IMG/VR virus record: IMGVR_UViG_2579778778_000001
DNA: 4,605 nucleotides
Strand: one strand, 5' to 3'
Source: a virus
Taxonomy: Duplodnaviria; Heunggongvirae; Uroviricota; Caudoviricetes
The notes under the pieces are model-generated. The model did not search any database. It was not told the origin of the DNA and was given only the letters and a program-made list of their open reading frames with translations. Positions 1 through 4,605 of this stretch are shown piece by piece. The translations under genes and the position numbers were made by a program. Each line of letters starts with the position of its first letter. Position 1 is the first letter of the stretch.

Positions 1-1997
1 CGGCAAAGAAATCCGAAACTGCAGCGGCATCATCGAAGAACGCGGCGAAAACCTCAGAAACGAATGCAGCTAACAGCGCACAGGCGGCAGCGACCTCACA
101 GACTGCATCGGCAAACTCCGCGACAGCAGCCAAAAAATCAGAAACCAACGCGAAAAACAGTGAGACAGCCGCAAAGACGAGCGAAACCAACGCAAAGTCC
201 AGCCAGACGGCAGCGAAAACCAGCGAAACGAATGCTAAAGCCAGTGAAACTGCGGCAAAAAACAGCCAGGTTGCAGCAGCCCAAAGCGAGAGCGCGGCAG
301 CCGGTTCTGCGACTTCAGCAGCTGGATCAGCAACTGCTGCGGCTAACAGCCAGAAAGCTGCGAAGACGAGTGAAACTAACGCAAAGTCCAGCCAGACGGC
401 AGCGAAGACCAGCGAAACGAATGCCAAAGCCAGTGAAACTGCGGCGAAAAGCAGTCAGGATGCAGCGGCTCAAAGCGAGAGTGCCGCAGCCAGTTCTGCA
501 AGCGCGGCGGCTGCTTCTGCCACTGCATCAGCTAACAGTCAAAAAGCAGCAAAAACCAGTGAAACCAACGCAAAGGTGAGCGAAACAGCGGCTGCGAACT
601 CAGCGAAAGCATCGGCAGCAAGCCAGACGGCAGCTAAAGCAAGCGAAGATGCAGCCAGAGAGTACGCAAGCCAGGCTGCGGAGCCGTATAAATATGTCTT
701 ACAGCCGCTGCCTGATGTGTGGATACCATTTAACGATTCGCTGGATATGATTACGGGCTTTTCGCCGTCATATAAAAAAATTGTTATTGGTGACGATGAA
801 ATAACGATGCCTGGCGACAAGATTGTTAAGTTTAAACGTGCATCGAAAGCAACCTATATTAACAAATCTGGTGTGCTGACAGAGGCTGCCATTGACGAGC
901 CACGATTTGAACGTGATGGCCTGCTTATTGAGGGGCAAAGAACAAACTACATGCTCAATTCGGAAAGCCCTGCCAGTTGGGGGCGATCGTCAAATATGGA
1001 TGTGCCCGAAACAGGGACGGATAATTTTGGTTTTACCTATGGAAAGTTTGTCTGCAACGATTCTCTGATTGGGCAAACCTCAGCCATTAATATGGCATCA
1101 ATTGCTGCAACAAAGTCAGTTGATGTCTCAGGCGATAATAAACACGTGACAACCTCATGTCGTTTTAAAACAGAACTGCAGGTAAGGTTGCGTATCCGGT
1201 TTGATAAATATGACGGTAGCGCAACAACTTTTCTTGGTGATGCGTATATTGATACACAAACGCTTGAAATTAATATGACAGGCGGTGCTGCCTCAAGGAT
1301 TACAGCGAGAGTCAGAAAGGACGAAGCTACCGGATGGATTTTTGCAGAGGCAACAATTCAGGCAATTGATGGGGAGTTAAAAATAGGCTCTCAGATACAG
1401 TATTCTCCTAAGCAGAGCGGGGCAACCGTATCTGGTGACTATATTTATCTGGCCACCCCACAAGTAGAAGATGGGCCTTGTGTATCATCTTTTATTATAT
1501 CAGGAGCGACGGCGGCGACCCGCGCAAGCGATATAGTTACAGTTCCAATTAAGAATAATCTTTATAATCTTCCTTTTACGGTTCTTTGTGAGGTACATAA
1601 GAACTGGTATAAAACGCCAAATGCAGCGCCACGTGTTTTTGATACCGGCGGTCATCAAACCGGAGCGGCTATTATTCTTGGCTTCGGTCGTTCAACAGAT
1701 TACGACGGATTTCCTTATTGCGATATTGGAGGAGCTAACAGACGGGTAAACGAAAACGCATCGCTTGAAAAAATGGTTATGGGGATGCGTGTAAAGTCAG
1801 AGCAGTCTACGTGCTCAGTAAGTAACGGGCATATATCCAGCGAAACAAAAACCACATGGTCCTGTATTCAGAACACCGCAATTATCCGTATTGGAGGCCA
1901 GACTACAGCCGGGTTACGTCATTTATTTGGTCATGTCAGGAATTTCAGAATATGGCACAAGGCATTGACTGATGCTCAGGTGGGGGAGTCAATCTAA
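1..1997 (+). CDS. stf: Side tail fibre protein, lambda Stf-like, 5'-partial (first full codon at nt 3; stop TAA 1995-1997). Repeat-rich Ala/Ser/Thr/Lys shaft, then a C-terminal putative receptor-binding domain with a LamG/ConA-lectin-like terminal motif.
   Basis: The frame of track ORF 576..1997 is open without stops back to nt 3. Translation of 3-660 gives repeats such as AKTSETNAKSSQTAAKTSETNAKASETAAK, which match from memory the AKTSETNA-type repeats of the lambda Stf N-terminal shaft. The track start at 576 is an internal GTG, not the true start. The C-terminus ends ...GLRHLFGHVRNFRIWHKALTDAQVGESI, resembling the terminal strand motif of LamG/ConA-like jelly-roll domains. It is followed by a coupled downstream gene (TAATG overlap). 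Confidence 0.85.
   Translation, partial: AKKSETAAASSKNAAKTSETNAANSAQAAATSQTASANSATAAKKSETNAKNSETAAKTSETNAKSSQTAAKTSETNAKASETAAKNSQVAAAQSESAAAGSATSAAGSATAAANSQKAAKTSETNAKSSQTAAKTSETNAKASETAAKSSQDAAAQSESAAASSASAAAASATASANSQKAAKTSETNAKVSETAAANSAKASAASQTAAKASEDAAREYASQAAEPYKYVLQPLPDVWIPFNDSLDMITGFSPSYKKIVIGDDEITMPGDKIVKFKRASKATYINKSGVLTEAAIDEPRFERDGLLIEGQRTNYMLNSESPASWGRSSNMDVPETGTDNFGFTYGKFVCNDSLIGQTSAINMASIAATKSVDVSGDNKHVTTSCRFKTELQVRLRIRFDKYDGSATTFLGDAYIDTQTLEINMTGGAASRITARVRKDEATGWIFAEATIQAIDGELKIGSQIQYSPKQSGATVSGDYIYLATPQVEDGPCVSSFIISGATAATRASDIVTVPIKNNLYNLPFTVLCEVHKNWYKTPNAAPRVFDTGGHQTGAAIILGFGRSTDYDGFPYCDIGGANRRVNENASLEKMVMGMRVKSEQSTCSVSNGHISSETKTTWSCIQNTAIIRIGGQTTAGLRHLFGHVRNFRIWHKALTDAQVGESI
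171..548 (+). repeat. In-frame tandem duplication of a 189-bp (63-codon) unit inside the stf shaft (copy 1 171-359, copy 2 360-548), with degenerate partial copies on both sides and a ~14-15 codon sub-periodicity.
   Basis: Direct comparison: gcaaagacgagcgaaaccaacgcaaagtccagccagacggcagcg at 171 versus gcgaagacgagtgaaactaacgcaaagtccagccagacggcagcg at 360 (offset exactly 189). The first ~100 nt of each copy are near-identical and the remainder more diverged. Protein units are AKTSETNAKSSQTAAKTSETNAKASETAAKNSQVAAAQSESAAAGSATSAAGSATAAANSQKA and AKTSETNAKSSQTAAKTSETNAKASETAAKSSQDAAAQSESAAASSASAAAASATASANSQKA. Confidence 0.85.
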
Positions 1998-2278
1998 TGA
2001 AAGATTTAACACTCAAATTTGAAGACAGGGCCGACTTTTCGGCCTTTATGGAGAGTATTGGCTATTATGATGACGAGTCGATGCAGGATGATATTCTTAT
2101 CGACGTGATAGGTAACGTGTACAAAGAAACCGGAGAACTGACTGAAGATGGCGAACCGGTATGTGTTAAGGAAGACGGATATTTTGTAAACGTGCGCATC
2201 ATTAATGATTCGCAAATATCGTCATTATTCGATGAATACGTGGTTGCTGTTGAGCATCAACTTCGTGGCTGGATGTGA
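1997..2278 (+). CDS. Hypothetical small acidic protein (93 aa), function unknown; candidate fibre chaperone or adaptor.
   Basis: ATG at 1997 overlaps the stf stop (TAATG). GGGGGAG Shine-Dalgarno at 1983-1989, 7 nt upstream. Uninterrupted ORF to TGA 2276-2278. Asp/Glu-rich, no hydrophobic segment. Low GC like the flanking genes. I do not recognise a family. Confidence 0.7.
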   Translation: MKDLTLKFEDRADFSAFMESIGYYDDESMQDDILIDVIGNVYKETGELTEDGEPVCVKEDGYFVNVRIINDSQISSLFDEYVVAVEHQLRGWM

Positions 2279-2287
2279 GGAAGAAAA

Positions 2288-3328
2288 ATGGCTACATCGA
2301 CAGTAATTCCTGATGACATCAAAACGCTAAAATCCGACGTTAGCAAATTAAAAAACGATCAAGGAAGCTACGCAACAAAATCTTATGTAGACAATAAAAC
2401 AACATGGAATGGTTATTGCAATGTAATCTATGATCAAAAAACATTGCCAACAACTGGAACTATATTCAGCGGTAAGCTGCATTTGTCAAATAAGACTGGT
2501 GAAACGGAAAACGCTTATAGTGACATATATACCAGAAAAAATATTGATGGTACTAAAGATACAATGACGAGGATCGTCACACATAACGGGACAAAAGGTA
2601 TCTTTTGGGACTTTAGTGATCTTTACGGAGGAACTTTAATTTTTCCAGGCAGTGATGGTTACCTTAAGATGGGGAACTGTCTCATGTCGTATGGTGTGCG
2701 GGGAAGTAACGCGCTTATTAAGTTTGATAATACAGACTCATTGCAGATCAAATATGCTAATCACGGGTCGACCATGACACTAAACACGCAAGGTACGGCG
2801 TATTCTGGTGTGTCGACGTTATTATGGGGAAATTCCAGCCGTCCTGTTGTTTATGAAGTCGGTGTTGATGGTGGCGCTTATATGTTCTATGCGCAGAAAA
2901 ATACCGATAACACCTATATGTTAAGCGTTAATGGTGCATGTCATGCCACCGCATTTAACCAGCATTCCGACCGGGATCTGAAAGACAACATTCAGGTGAT
3001 CGATAATGCAACCGACCGCATCCGTAAAATGAACGGCTATACATACACGCTTAAAGAAAACGGTATGCCCTATGCTGGTGTCATTGCACAGGAAGCTCTG
3101 GAAGCAATCCCAGAAGTTGTAGGTTCCGCAATGAAATATCAGGACGGTGCGAGCGGATCGGAAGGTGAAGAAGGTGAACGTTATTACACAGTAGATTATT
3201 CTGGTGTTACTGGCTTGCTTGTTCAGGTAGCCAGAGAGTCAGACGACAGAATAACAGCACTGGAAGAAGAAAACGCAGAATTAAGACAAAGATTATCTGT
3301 AATTGAGGCGGCGCTTGCGTCTAAATAA
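2288..3328 (+). CDS. Short tail fibre or tailspike-like protein (346 aa) with a C-terminal peptidase S74-type intramolecular chaperone auto-processing domain.
   Basis: GAGGAAG Shine-Dalgarno at 2277-2283, then ATG 2288. The C-terminal ~120 aa (from nt ~2966) carry the S74/endosialidase-chaperone hallmarks: Ser227 and Lys232 in NQH-SDRDLKDNI (Ser/Lys spaced i and i+5, as in the endosialidase CTD), then GYTYTLKENG, GVIAQEALEAIPEVV, YYTVDYSGVTGLLVQVARE and a terminal coiled-coil-like ITALEEENAELRQRLSVIEAALASK. The N-terminal ~226 aa are Gly/Thr/Asn/Tyr/Ser-rich and beta-like, typical of fibre tips. Confidence 0.85.
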   Translation: MATSTVIPDDIKTLKSDVSKLKNDQGSYATKSYVDNKTTWNGYCNVIYDQKTLPTTGTIFSGKLHLSNKTGETENAYSDIYTRKNIDGTKDTMTRIVTHNGTKGIFWDFSDLYGGTLIFPGSDGYLKMGNCLMSYGVRGSNALIKFDNTDSLQIKYANHGSTMTLNTQGTAYSGVSTLLWGNSSRPVVYEVGVDGGAYMFYAQKNTDNTYMLSVNGACHATAFNQHSDRDLKDNIQVIDNATDRIRKMNGYTYTLKENGMPYAGVIAQEALEAIPEVVGSAMKYQDGASGSEGEEGERYYTVDYSGVTGLLVQVARESDDRITALEEENAELRQRLSVIEAALASK

Positions 3329-3331
3329 TAT
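3303..3331 (+). promoter_or_regulatory. Candidate sigma70-like promoter inside the 3' end of the fibre gene: TTGAGG (3303-3308), 17-bp spacer, TAATAT (3326-3331).
   Basis: Pattern match only. The -35 is 4/6 and the -10 is 4/6 to consensus with ideal 17-bp spacing. A start near 3338-3340 would fall inside the 5' arm of the downstream hairpin. Confidence 0.2.
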
Positions 3332-3334
3332 TAA

Positions 3335-3357
3335 GGGGCCGAGCGCCCCGTTTTATT
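3335..3357 (+). terminator. Rho-independent terminator candidate: GGGGC (3335-3339), loop CGAGC, GCCCC (3345-3349), then G and TTTTATT (3351-3357).
   Basis: A perfect 5-bp all-GC stem followed immediately by a T-rich tract, starting 7 nt after the stop of the 2288..3328 CDS. The stem is short, so strength is uncertain. Confidence 0.55.
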
Positions 3358-3370
3358 GGGTAGGATGAAA

Positions 3371-3664
3371 ATGGATATAACACCTTTCCTTCATGCGCTT
3401 TGTGCTGTGGCTGCGCAGCTACTGATTGGTCTTTTTACCGGGAACTGGGCTTACGGGGCGATAGCCGGTTGTACGTTCTTCATTGCGCGTGAACACACCC
3501 AGGCAGAATATCGCTGGATCGAAATGTTCGGGCATGGCAAGCGAATGAATATGCCGTGGTGGGGCGGTTTTGATACACGTGCATGGGATGTGGCAAGCCT
3601 GATGGATTTTGCTGTGCCGGTGGTGGCGTGTCTGCTGGTCTGGCTGTTGGTTAATCGTGGGTGA
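3371..3664 (+). CDS. Small predicted inner-membrane protein (~98 aa from ATG 3371; alternative ATG 3365; track TTG 3356), two hydrophobic segments, function unknown.
   Basis: GGTAGGA Shine-Dalgarno-like at 3359-3365, 5 nt before ATG 3371. Hydrophobic stretches ALCAVAAQLLIGLFTGNWAYGAIAGCTFFIA and VASLMDFAVPVVACLLVWLLV flank a Trp/Gly-rich loop (MPWWGGFDTRAWDV). No lipobox or cleavable signal peptide evident. GC is visibly higher (~53% in a sampled line) than genes 2-3. Stop TGA 3662-3664. Confidence 0.65.
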   Translation: MDITPFLHALCAVAAQLLIGLFTGNWAYGAIAGCTFFIAREHTQAEYRWIEMFGHGKRMNMPWWGGFDTRAWDVASLMDFAVPVVACLLVWLLVNRG

Positions 3665-3674
3665 AAAAAGGTGA

Positions 3675-3803
3675 GCTGTATATGCAACGGAGGAAGAAAC
3701 CCCGTTGCTGGAAGCCTGGAAAAAGTATCGGATGCTGCTGAACCGTGTTGATACATCAACTGCACCTGATATTGAGTGGCCTACGAACCCTGTCAGGGAG
3801 TAA
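3675..3803 (+). pseudogene. tfa: 3' remnant (~41 codons) of a tail fibre assembly gene (lambda Tfa family); no start codon and no N-terminal part.
   Basis: The frame open from 3675 to TAA 3801-3803 translates to [42 protein letters not shown]. From memory this closely matches the C-terminus of lambda Tfa and E. coli prophage Tfa proteins (...[30 protein letters not shown]...). An in-frame TGA lies immediately upstream at 3672-3674, only 8 nt after the stop of the membrane protein gene. Confidence 0.65.
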
Positions 3804-3811
3804 TCATTGGG

Positions 3812-3881
3812 ATTATGCCGCAGCACGTCTTAAGCAAGACCATTATGCCGCAGAAACGTTGTATGCAATAACGTTCTGCGG
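3812..3881. repeat. Intergenic repeat cluster: 12-bp direct repeat ATTATGCCGCAG at 3812-3823 and 3842-3853, the second forming an imperfect inverted repeat GCCGCAGAAACGTT (3847-3860) / AACGTTCTGCGG (3870-3881) around a 9-nt spacer.
   Basis: Read directly from the sequence. The arms are complementary apart from a 1-nt bulge. No flanking T-tract on either strand, so not a classical terminator. Confidence 0.5.
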
Positions 3882-3888
3882 TTGGCTG

Positions 3889-3908
3889 ATGCACTTTCGA
3901 GAGTGCAT
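3889..3908. promoter_or_regulatory. Near-perfect 20-bp palindrome ATGCACTTTCGAGAGTGCAT (18/20 symmetric); possible protein-binding site or hairpin.
   Basis: Reverse complement is ATGCACTCTCGAAAGTGCAT, so two mismatches. It lies in the 380-bp non-coding gap between the tfa remnant and the convergent permease gene. Confidence 0.35.
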
Positions 3909-4045
3909 GTATTGAATTATTTCCAGCTATTATCGATTTTACGTATTTTTTGCATGAGAGAATTTGTACCTCCTCCCAACAACGACCTTCCATGACTTTC
4001 CGGACTTCTGTGGGCCAGCGGACGATGCTGCCCTCGGATGTTGTG

Positions 4046-4605
4046 CTAATTGGGTGATGACAAATCCTGTGTATGGGTGTTTCCCTTTGTGCGTGCGTTG
4101 ATGCTGGTAACGGTGAACGTCATGATGAACACAACCGCGAATAAGACGACAATCGTCGGAGCTGGTGCACTGTCGATAAAAAAGGACAACCAGACACCAG
4201 TCATTGACACTATTACCGATATGCCAATCGCCAGTAGGAGCGCAATATGAAAGCGTTGTGTCAGGAGTACCGCAATGGCGCCAGGCGCAATGAGCAGAGA
4301 AATGGAGAGAATGATACCTACCGCTTTCAGCGTCGCCACAATGGTCAGAGAGACCATGCACAGCAGCCCATAATGCAGACATCTCGTATGCAAACCGCTT
4401 ACCTGCGCCTGTTGATAATCAAAGCTGAACAGCAAAAAATCCCGCCATTTTACGCTAATAACAAGTGTAACCAGCCCGGCAATAATCACCGTCTGGATTA
4501 TATCGCCGATGGTTACCCCGAGCATGTCGCCGAAAAGAATATGGTCAAGATGTACGTCTGGTTTGACTGCAATATACAAGATCAGACCTGCGGCAAACAT
4601 GCCAG
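4046..4605 (-). CDS. ABC-3 family (ZnuB/MntB/SitD-type) metal ABC transporter permease, C-terminal ~185 aa; the 5' end of the gene lies beyond the window. Possibly a sitD-like Mn/Fe permease.
   Basis: Minus-strand ORF open to the window edge, stop TAG (revcomp of 4046-4048). The translation is multi-TM and aligns by eye with the C-terminal half of E. coli ZnuB as I recall it, including the LFGD-L-V motif (here DHILFGDMLGVTIGD) and the following helices. Assignment within the family is from context, not sequence. Confidence 0.8.
   Translation of the reverse strand, partial: GMFAAGLILYIAVKPDVHLDHILFGDMLGVTIGDIIQTVIIAGLVTLVISVKWRDFLLFSFDYQQAQVSGLHTRCLHYGLLCMVSLTIVATLKAVGIILSISLLIAPGAIAVLLTQRFHIALLLAIGISVIVSMTGVWLSFFIDSAPAPTIVVLFAVVFIMTFTVTSINARTKGNTHTQDLSSPN

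Follow-up and report, generated by a model that had tools for sequence, protein, structure and literature searches.

What takes the place of the distal part of the side tail fibre Stf, and of Tfa, in a lambda-type locus that has kept the Stf shaft and a mere stump of tfa? The question is raised by a 4,605-nt stretch of DNA (the window; coordinates refer to it, and all features named below lie on its + strand), in which a preliminary description had seen a low-GC, three-gene, horizontally acquired candidate host-range module. Our reading, which we consider likely, is that the product of 702–3328 is the outer half of a side tail fibre that is branched and made of two parts, and that this half is a Tfa-independent, glycan-targeting adhesin, probably of dual specificity. 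As part of the same reading, the cassette would have entered the lambdoid stf–tfa locus by recombination, out of a pool of genes on which low-GC virulent coliphages also draw.

Composition and boundaries of the cassette

The window is 100% identical to an Escherichia coli chromosome, where it lies between trkG/lom and sitDCBA–uspF–ompN (the Rac position). It forms the right end of a defective, Rac-type cryptic prophage: the prophage in the matching chromosome has no head, tail-tube or intact J genes, which are replaced by trkG as in K-12 Rac. With lambda stf–tfa and K-12 Rac stfR–tfaR it has in common the position downstream of lom, a repetitive shaft, the tail-attachment N-terminus and the last 39 codons of tfa, whereas its distal receptor-binding part is unrelated and a functional Tfa is missing. 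Alignment with these two loci is limited to the Stf N-terminus and the last ~100 nt of tfa, and blastn against lambda and K-12 gives no match within 702–3682, in agreement with the suggestion that a horizontally exchanged host-range module stands where Tfa and the usual distal part of Stf would be.

Positions 1–701 encode the shaft of this 791-aa side tail fibre, an Ala/Ser/Thr-rich, repetitive coiled coil with a 189-bp tandem repeat across 156–575. The annotation of the matching chromosome places the Stf N-terminus 379 nt upstream of the window. The full-length protein carries the phage_tail_N domain (PF08400, aa 3–132; 223.9 bits against a cutoff of 26.6) and shares 88% identity with K-12 StfR across aa 3–124, past which BLASTP against StfR returns only low-complexity shaft matches.

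The block that follows is compositionally distinct from the GC-rich shaft, as had been proposed: GC content is 55.3% for 1–701, 42.9% for 702–3334 and 50.9% for 3350–3803 (z = 5.9 and 3.2), with the lowest stretch inside the cassette, ~34%, at about 2344–2644. GC drops at about 686–702 and climbs back near 3335–3394, and the maximum-likelihood change points are 686 and, for a second one sought within 2650–3803, 3394. The expectation that breakpoints would coincide with these shifts holds on the left, where the homology breakpoint seen with ESCO3 and IrisVonRoten, at the QPLPDVW motif, falls at 702. It fails on the right, where homology to K-12 tfaR and to lambda tfa begins at 3683, not at ~3335, and this junction is common to the window, the lambdoid phage Tritos and phage 21. 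The unit exchanged in lambdoid phages thus includes a membrane-protein gene of 53.6% GC, making the cassette itself composite.

The low-GC block ends in a terminator-like, GC-rich hairpin followed by a T run (3335–3349), which travels with the distal-fibre gene: it is kept in Tritos and PhiR46_1 and is missing in phage 21, which has no distal fibre. Beyond it, at 3371–3664, comes the gene for a 97-aa predicted membrane protein (PHROG 1443), placed after the module and before the tfa stump, as in Tritos and phage 21. This protein occurs in 73 phage records; the listed matches above 75% identity come from lambdoid, N15-like, Stx-type and ~39-kb phages, and T1-, T5- and 9g-like phages are absent from the 45 matches listed. 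Within this set, the module is joined by the membrane protein only where the phage is temperate.

The tfa remnant itself (3684–3803) is a right-hand recombination scar, annotated in RefSeq as a pseudogene; it consists of the last 39 codons, with an in-frame stop just 5′ and no start codon, and lambda-like sequence of the kind lying downstream of tfa follows at its 3′ side. The functional gene has been lost, as the preliminary description held, and the relatives that were to overturn this view, with the same arrangement plus an intact tfa, do not include Tritos: this complete, plaque-forming lambdoid phage has the same arrangement and no annotated tfa anywhere in its complete genome. Because side fibres are dispensable on K-12, the viability of Tritos is no proof that the module works without Tfa.

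The tip, the small acidic protein and the distal fibre

The exchangeable Stf tip comprises 431 aa (702–1997). It opens with a conserved junction segment (~702–960, beginning QPLPDVWIPFNDSLDM), whose PLPDVW motif is present in all six phages compared. A core with the predicted fold of a concanavalin-like lectin/CBM β-sandwich spans ~969–1466, and a β-rich C-terminal part closes with an invariant RHLFGH–RNFRIWHK motif where stf ends, at 1997. The model of the tip is of moderate confidence overall (mean pLDDT 64.8; residues 1–85 below 50). NCBIfam NF048003 (GTA head-spike fibre) matches Stf aa 435–635 with 50.5 bits against a cutoff of 36, and the tip matches the PDB 6TB9 chain with E = 1.2e-7. 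The RcGTA head spike fibre Rcc01080 (NF048003; PDB 6TB9) thus has a homologous domain (E = 1e-7 over ~245 aa), and its binding to capsular polysaccharide has been shown in the literature. Rcc01080 differs in being a single subunit on the capsid vertices of an alphaproteobacterial gene transfer agent, whereas the window domain is the C-terminus of a presumably trimeric tail fibre; further, since Rcc01080 is resolved experimentally at residues 2–10 only, it provides no solved fold for comparison. The RcGTA homology and the ConA/CBM-like predicted fold suggest that the Stf tip binds a surface glycan.

The stf stop codon overlaps by one base (TAATG) the start of the next gene, which is translationally coupled to stf and encodes a 93-aa acidic protein (1997–2278; PHROG 1361; pI 4.05). 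In each locus examined, the start of the ~90-aa gene coincides with the end of the fibre gene or lies one or two bases from it. The protein was considered as a Tfa-type assembly protein (Tfa/Caudo_TAP), and sequence and profile comparison gave no such similarity; it is unrelated to TfaR (hhalign probability 0.06%). A homologue is kept without the distal fibre in phage 21-type and rV5-type phages, which ties the 93-aa protein to the tip, and we propose from this gene context that it may be a tip-specific assembly or accessory protein.

The third gene, with its own ribosome-binding site, encodes a 346-aa distal short fibre (2288–3328) that matches PHROG 4563 over its full length. A conserved N-terminal anchor (aa 1–32, nt 2288–2383) is followed by a swappable variable segment (aa 33–120, nt 2384–2647), a conserved distal region (aa 121–226) and a Peptidase_S74 intramolecular chaperone (aa 227–346, nt 2966–3325). 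In comparison with Tritos, ESCO3 and PhiR46_1, the anchor is 97–100% identical and aa 33–120 are ~41% identical, and allelic replacement is limited to this segment. The anchor motif, M-x-T-x-T-x-IP-x-DI-x-x-LK, recurs in T1-like, T5-like and Seuratvirus homologues, and the anchor-bearing gene starts 10–20 nt past the small gene in every checkable record among those listed. Pfam PF13884 matches aa 227–278 with 52.4 bits against a cutoff of 22 and over model positions 1–57 of 58, with Ser227 at model position 1 and DRDLKDNI after it; self-cleavage is predicted at this residue (NQH-S-DRDLK). The C-terminus matches the S16 gp37 chaperone (6F45). Like other S74 fibres and spikes (K1F endosialidase, T5 pb1 and S16 gp37), the protein has the PF13884 domain, its Ser-Asp-x-x-Leu-Lys start and a coiled-coil tail as in S16 gp37, but those proteins attach directly to baseplate or collar, whereas the window fibre has an anchor specific to the Stf-tip module and a very short predicted mature form (~226 aa).

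These profile matches, together with the low pI of the small protein, bear out the earlier listing of a lectin-like tip, an acidic ORF and a self-chaperoning fibre. The accompanying view that not all components could be assigned to known families survives for the role of the 93-aa protein only. All four proteins are already in PHROGs.

Related fibres and distribution

A two-fibre architecture was already predicted in 2025 for the lateral fibre of the T5-like phage IrisVonRoten (Bas32), which comprises a proximal Gp22 with a galectin-like C-terminal domain, Gp23 and a distal Gp24 (Humolli et al. 2025, PMC11990801). There, AlphaFold-Multimer modelling of Gp22 and Gp24 predicted the distal fibre to be attached to the proximal one (PMC11990801), and the phage infects O16-expressing K-12 (PMC11990801, PMC8594841). 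Gene order and spacing are identical in the window. Over 431 aa, the window tip shares 63% identity with the C-terminus of Gp22, the identity between the 93-aa protein and Gp23 is 39%, and the distal fibre has in common with Gp24 the anchor (MATSTVIPDDIKTLK versus MVTKTVIPTDITKLK), the S74 chaperone and a region aligned to what the authors term a T5-like RBD2. The window differs in having a lambdoid backbone (PF08400 N-terminus), not a T5-like one, and in the membrane-protein gene and tfa stump that come after its distal fibre. That fibre is also shorter (346 aa versus 574 aa), without the ~240-aa Gp12-like RBD1 and hence not T-shaped, and it aligns with Gp24 only at aa 1–17, at aa 29–92 (Gp24 264–324) and in the chaperone. 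Synteny, anchor conservation and the published prediction for the 63%-identical homologue suggest that the distal fibre docks on Stf.

The branched, L-shaped LtfA/LtfB fibres of the T5-like phages DT57C and DT571/2 are an analogy, taken from the papers' descriptions: in the passages drawn on here, a tail-fixed fibre bears a second fibre of other specificity, both fibres are O-antigen-directed host-range determinants, an S74 chaperone forms the end of LtfA itself, and the joint between LtfA and LtfB resembles phiEco32 gp14/gp15, whereas a lectin tip or a ~90-aa protein is not mentioned in those passages (PMC4728585, PMC10713586). A further related locus is that of the lambdoid phage 21/Perceval type, which consists of stf, a 92-aa gene, a membrane-protein gene and sitDCBA. 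It has the same tip family (82% nucleotide identity over 676–1644), a 92-aa homologue of the small protein (54% identity), the membrane-protein gene (95%) and the same tfa junction and sitD flank; unlike the window, it has neither distal S74 fibre nor hairpin, the C-terminal part of its tip has diverged, and a deletion joins the tfa stump straight to the sitD flank.

Whether the same cassette occurs in unrelated phage backbones, a question left by the preliminary description, has a positive answer. The trio of tip, ~90-aa protein and anchor-bearing S74 fibre is syntenic in seven phage groups, namely lambdoid, N15-like, Nonagvirus, Seuratvirus, T1-like (Drexlerviridae) and T5-like (Tequintavirus) phages and a phage on a 145-kb metagenome contig; the match of Nonagvirus ESCO3 to 702–3264 is 89%. 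The distribution in phage records is nested (230 for the tip, 181 for the 93-aa protein and at least 60 for the anchor). Near-identical copies reside in the functional phages Tritos, HannyBb, PhiR63_1 and 2G7b, and the cassette is found at a query coverage of at least 80% in 364 of 5,426 complete E. coli genomes. Cassette GC, at 41.6–44.5% versus 54–55% in lambdoid tail genes, matches that of the flanks of virulent carriers (38.5–44.2%). The cassette is a horizontally exchanged host-recognition module that is common and already present in many coliphages, not a new type of system. In other strains, IS3 or IS1 insertions lie in or near it.

Proposed assembly, alternatives and meaning

Building on the observed homologies, synteny, breakpoints and composition, we envisage the following assembly. 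The trimeric Stf shaft would end at the conserved QPLPDVW junction, after which each chain would fold as a concanavalin-like lectin domain that, as a homologue of the RcGTA spike, would recognize a glycan of the cell surface, for instance O-antigen or capsule. The 93-aa protein, made in step with Stf via the one-base stop/start overlap, would most likely fold, cap or complete the tip in Tfa's stead, though it is unrelated to Tfa. The 346-aa protein would trimerize through its own C-terminal S74 chaperone, which would then cut itself off at Ser227, and would dock by its invariant N-terminal peptide onto the Stf junction or tip, with aa 33–120 as a second, swappable binding segment. As a whole, the module would serve as primary adhesin and set host range, independently of Tfa and probably with two specificities.

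Two points of this scheme could be otherwise. The 93-aa protein might be a structural connector on the Stf tip, a socket for the distal-fibre anchor rather than a folding helper, which we hold to be rather unlikely: phage 21-type lambdoid and rV5-like phages keep an intact homologue with no anchor-bearing fibre downstream, where a connector would be useless, and in the published prediction it is to Gp22 that Gp24 is attached, the small protein being given no role (PMC11990801). The 346-aa protein might also be an independent short fibre elsewhere on the tail tip, so that Stf is unbranched and the adhesins merely share an operon; direct attachment to the baseplate is seen in many phages for S74 fibres whose N-termini differ. 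That would leave it surprising that the anchor is kept across unrelated tail tips (lambda-like, T1-like, T5-like, 9g-like and N15-like), that the tip and the ~90-aa protein are the only partners common to these anchor-bearing phages, and that the short spacing between small gene and anchor gene is so constant in the checkable records; we judge an independent fibre very improbable.

A further alternative, to which we give even chances, concerns the host context and not the nature of the module: in this chromosome the cassette may be a passive fragment of a dead prophage, with no current function and with frames left intact by recent acquisition rather than selection. The matching locus has trkG in place of head, tail-tube and intact J genes, tfa is cut down to a stump, and the IS insertions in other strains fit such a state, whereas the near-identical copies in functional phages speak against it. 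Lambdoid phages can reportedly pick up tail-fibre genes from defective prophages, which also counts against it. As the prophage in the matching genome is a Rac-type remnant that makes no particles, the intact cassette genes there can serve only as recombination material for lambdoid phages that enter the cell.

The range of O-antigen or capsule types open to a phage is set by its side and lateral tail fibres, and it is by exchanging swappable modules of this sort that engineers retarget lambda-based particles. Biologically, the branched-fibre cassette proposed here is an ordinary case of tail-fibre mosaicism. It moves between virulent and temperate coliphages and has clean, reusable breakpoints, with the PLPDVW junction as the left one and either the tfa stump or the hairpin as the right one. 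Judged by the order and layout of the genes, Tfa is unneeded, because one fibre has its own chaperone and the lectin domain has a dedicated ~90-aa partner. The practical use is modest, a ready-made candidate Tfa-independent retargeting unit, and the small ~90-aa family is flagged as a candidate player in fibre assembly. It is possible, although on balance doubtful, that PHROG 1361 is an undescribed fibre-accessory class, found only beside concanavalin-like tips in enterobacterial phages of several families, that both finishes the lectin tip in Tfa's absence and forms the site at which the self-chaperoning second fibre docks. If so, a side fibre of the lambda type would become a branched adhesin whose two specificities can be swapped independently.

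Borders of the low-GC block

The proposal, made in the preliminary description, that a low-GC block of three genes replaces the canonical distal end of stf and tfa is borne out by base composition, gene layout, a hairpin and a tfa remnant. GC content is 55.3% over 1–701, 42.9% over 702–3334 and 50.9% over 3350–3803 (z = 5.9 and 3.2), and likelihood analysis places the change points at 686 and 3394. Little space separates the ORFs: the stop codon of stf, at the end of the lectin-like tip (702–1997), shares a base with the start codon of the 93-aa gene (1997–2278) in TAATG, and the gene for the 346-aa distal fibre (2288–3328) begins at an ATG (2288) behind a GAGGA ribosome-binding site. A GC-rich hairpin and a T run come next, at 3335–3349. 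Of tfa, 39 codons remain (3684–3803), preceded by an in-frame stop. The minus strand of 700–3330 holds no ORF longer than 69 aa, and the window has no Rfam match to a non-coding RNA. Its lowest-GC stretch (2344–2644, about 34%) covers the end of the conserved N-terminal peptide of the distal fibre, here called the anchor (aa 1–32), and a variable segment, aa 33–120.

The left breakpoint coincides with the compositional shift, as had been suggested: blastn matches to Nonagvirus ESCO3 (702–3264, 89%) and to T5-like IrisVonRoten (702–2019) both begin at 702. Phage 21 matches 676–1644, 3362–3740 and 4026–4605, K-12 tfaR matches 3683–3781, and lambda tfa with the sequence downstream of it matches 3683–3883. 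The right boundary has two tiers, and the suggested coincidence holds for one of them. The unit found in virulent phages ends at the hairpin, where low GC stops, whereas the lambdoid unit replacing the distal part of stf and tfa extends to 3683, taking in a membrane-protein gene of 53.6% GC. Alignment shows the right junction, ...GTGAGCTGTAT/ATGCAACGGAGG..., to be common to the window, the lambdoid phage Tritos and phage 21; in N15-like PhiR46_1, similarity breaks off within the final codons of the membrane-protein gene, and there is no tfa stump. Beyond the junction, the window continues lambda-like (3683–3883, the tfa stump and following sequence, which match lambda at 78% across 201 columns and share the GCCGCAGAAACGTTGTATG.AATAACGTTCTGCGG palindrome found downstream of lambda tfa), and Tritos is K-12 Rac-like, running into pinR. 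One left junction is thus joined to differing right-hand contexts.

Farther right, the intergenic stretch 3864–3999, between the tfa stump and sitD, is related to segments in two annotated loci (L004, 9599–9730; L003, 9539–9635). The homologous sequence of phage 21 (86%) is found beyond sitABCD, and Tritos has a related piece close to int. A deletion in phage 21, moreover, puts the sitD flank right after the tfa stump (window positions 3740 and 4026 are fused). These relocations and the deletion suggest rearrangement around the sit operon. The operon, annotated in phage 21, is a lambdoid moron known from Perceval and is phage-borne in both; our literature search returned no papers on the side tail fiber and sitABCD of phage 21, nor any under the protein accessions.

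Tip, small protein and distal fibre

In Stf, PF08400 marks a lambda-type attachment domain; identity to K-12 StfR is 88% for aa 3–124, and beyond this stretch the two proteins are unrelated. Its shaft (122–575) contains 21-, 42- and 189-bp tandem repeats (189 bp × 2.2 copies, 83% matches). Total Stf length is about 650–800 aa among relatives, and because these lengths differ, the shaft probably varies through repeat gain and loss; out-of-frame ORFs within it (for example, 64–579, 171 aa) look like by-products of repeat composition. The AF2 model of the tip, built from a shallow alignment and confident only in its core, has pLDDT below 50 at aa ~1–90 only (702–960), a segment that may be a separable joint requiring trimerisation or a partner to fold. 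These ~90 residues also occur apart from the rest of the tip, attached to different C-terminal domains, in the T5-like phage IME178 and in AhP_Mru1, a phage of Aeromonas (41.7–44.3% identity). Four proteins (P0217, P0220, P0274 and P0282) bear tips 95–97% identical to that of the window on P2-type fibre N-termini, which contain PF03406 (P0217 also PF12571) and not lambda-type PF08400. The tip module has thus spread to another class of tail fibre too.

The 346-aa protein belongs to PHROG 4563 and has a Peptidase_S74 domain at aa 227–278, by virtue of which it should be self-chaperoning and self-cleaving, at a predicted Ser227. Across anchor-bearing fibres, 221 to 586 aa long, the sole universally conserved part is the N-terminus, M-[AVT]-T-x-T-[VN]-IP-x-DI-[KT]-x-LK, and the remainder is unrelated or shuffled. 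Among close relatives, the anchor is 97–100% identical, aa 33–120 exist as two alleles about 41% identical, a window type and a Tritos type, and the rest is 80–99% identical. Such a constant anchor beside variable remaining parts reads as the mark of a fixed peptide for docking, joined to a binding part that can be exchanged. Across these differing tails, the only partners in common are the tip and the ~90-aa protein.

The 93-aa protein is acidic (pI 4.05) and a member of PHROG 1361, with no match in Pfam, NCBIfam or PADLOC and matches to only 51 clusters among 1.8 billion representatives. Its predicted fold is a small α/β domain (pLDDT 88.6), for which structural searches returned no informative relatives. 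Phage 21-type lambdoids and rV5-like phages keep the small gene while lacking the distal fibre, which ties the product of that gene to the tip. Because of this persistence, we favour a role as a tip-assembly or accessory factor that would be functionally Tfa-like and non-homologous to Tfa. The main rival is that the protein is a connector. As the tip, the 93-aa gene and the anchor lie adjacent, recombinational linkage alone would make the three correlate. No fusion of the protein to a fibre gene occurs in the 51 representative clusters. A Tfa-like chaperone by homology was rejected (no Pfam or NCBIfam match; TfaR hhalign probability 0.06%), as was a role in defence or exclusion, PADLOC being negative for the 93-aa protein, the fibre and the membrane protein.

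Distribution and origin

Of 5,426 complete E. coli genomes, 364 match the cassette (700–3330) across 80% or more of the query and 1,807 contain parts of it; some copies are plasmid-borne. Records in the phage collection number 230 for the tip, 181 for the 93-aa protein and at least 60 for the first 40 aa of the distal fibre, and the organism-name tallies of the first two are nearly equal. Occurrence in unrelated phage backbones, raised in the preliminary description, is confirmed by constant gene order and spacing in the annotated loci of seven backgrounds: Tritos, PhiR46_1, ESCO3, T1-like KarlJaspers, T5-like IrisVonRoten and SelmaRatti, and Seuratvirus SA126VB. The tips of SelmaRatti and SA126VB are only ~35–37% identical to that of the window. 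Two metagenome look-ups of anchor-bearing fibres found a 92-aa gene beginning at the last base of a 646–671-aa fibre gene, and one of these loci is on a 145-kb contig whose virion genes are a different set.

The cassette genes have 41.6–44.5% GC, near the flanks of virulent carriers (ESCO3 44.2%, KarlJaspers 43.2%, IrisVonRoten 38.5%, nimi 44.2%) and below lambdoid J, lom and the stf N-terminus (51.6–55.4%); the Tritos head–tail region has 54.3%. From this proximity in composition, we infer that the tip–93-aa–fibre unit reached lambdoid phages from the low-GC virulent coliphage pool. The gene at 3371–3664 (+ strand; PHROG 1443), encoding a 97-aa predicted membrane protein without a Pfam or PADLOC match, would instead be a temperate-pool gene: it follows the fibre module in temperate coliphages and, among the matches listed, is absent from the examined virulent phages carrying the module. 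The protein occurs in 73 records, and temperate coliphages among the matches listed include lambdoid, N15-like, Stx-type and ~39-kb phages. Distant homologues adjoin tail-fibre assembly genes in Halomonas phage phiHAP-1, and others occur in Aeromonas phages.

Prophage setting and known relatives

E. coli chromosomes match all 4,605 bases at 100%, except for one 30-bp indel. In strain 13TMH22, annotation gives lysis genes, trkG, a ynaK fragment, a truncated J-like gene, lom and the fibre genes: a 791-aa ‘prophage tail fiber N-terminal domain’ protein, a 93-aa hypothetical and a 346-aa ‘tail fiber domain’ protein, followed by a 97-aa hypothetical, a tfa pseudogene, sitDCBA, uspF and ompN. The corresponding K-12 site reads trkG-ynaK-...-lomR-stfR-tfaR-pinR-...-uspF-ompN, and by this correspondence the window is the right-hand end of a cryptic prophage of Rac type whose fibre end differs. 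The matching 13TMH22 prophage lacks head and tail-tube genes and cannot be induced to particles; a tailocin reading is likewise unsupported, as no tail-tube gene is present. At ~3811–3852, the window has 30 bp extra relative to both lambda and the otherwise identical 13TMH22 locus, and the 12-bp direct repeat ATTATGCCGCAG bounding this segment suggests a slippage-type indel. In some E. coli strains, IS3 or IS1 has inserted in or beside the cassette (genome matches H1, H13, H14 and H241); strain 2-1 has IS3 inside it and two annotated ‘tail fiber domain’ fragments. These insertions show ongoing decay of cryptic copies.

Tritos, a prophage of strain LF82, yields virions and plaques on K-12, and its genome has the same four genes. 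The phage HannyBb carries the module as well. The preliminary description had tied the cassette to loss of functional tfa, and in keeping with this, the Tritos genome has no annotated tfa. IrisVonRoten, among the few siphoviruses of the original BASEL collection infecting O16-expressing K-12 (PMC8594841), encodes Gp22, Gp23 and Gp24, homologous to the tip, small protein and fibre of the window, although the window fibre lacks the Gp12-like domain of Gp24. AlphaFold-Multimer predicts that Gp24 attaches to the proximal fibre Gp22, whose C-terminus has a protruding galectin-like domain, maybe an extra receptor-binding domain (Humolli et al. 2025, PMC11990801). The branched LtfA/LtfB fibres described for DT57C (PMC4728585, PMC10713586) are a functional analogue. 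The original reading as a host-range module is largely right and the finding real, but the module is an ordinary one: a frequent, already catalogued mosaic lateral-fibre unit, here in a dead prophage.
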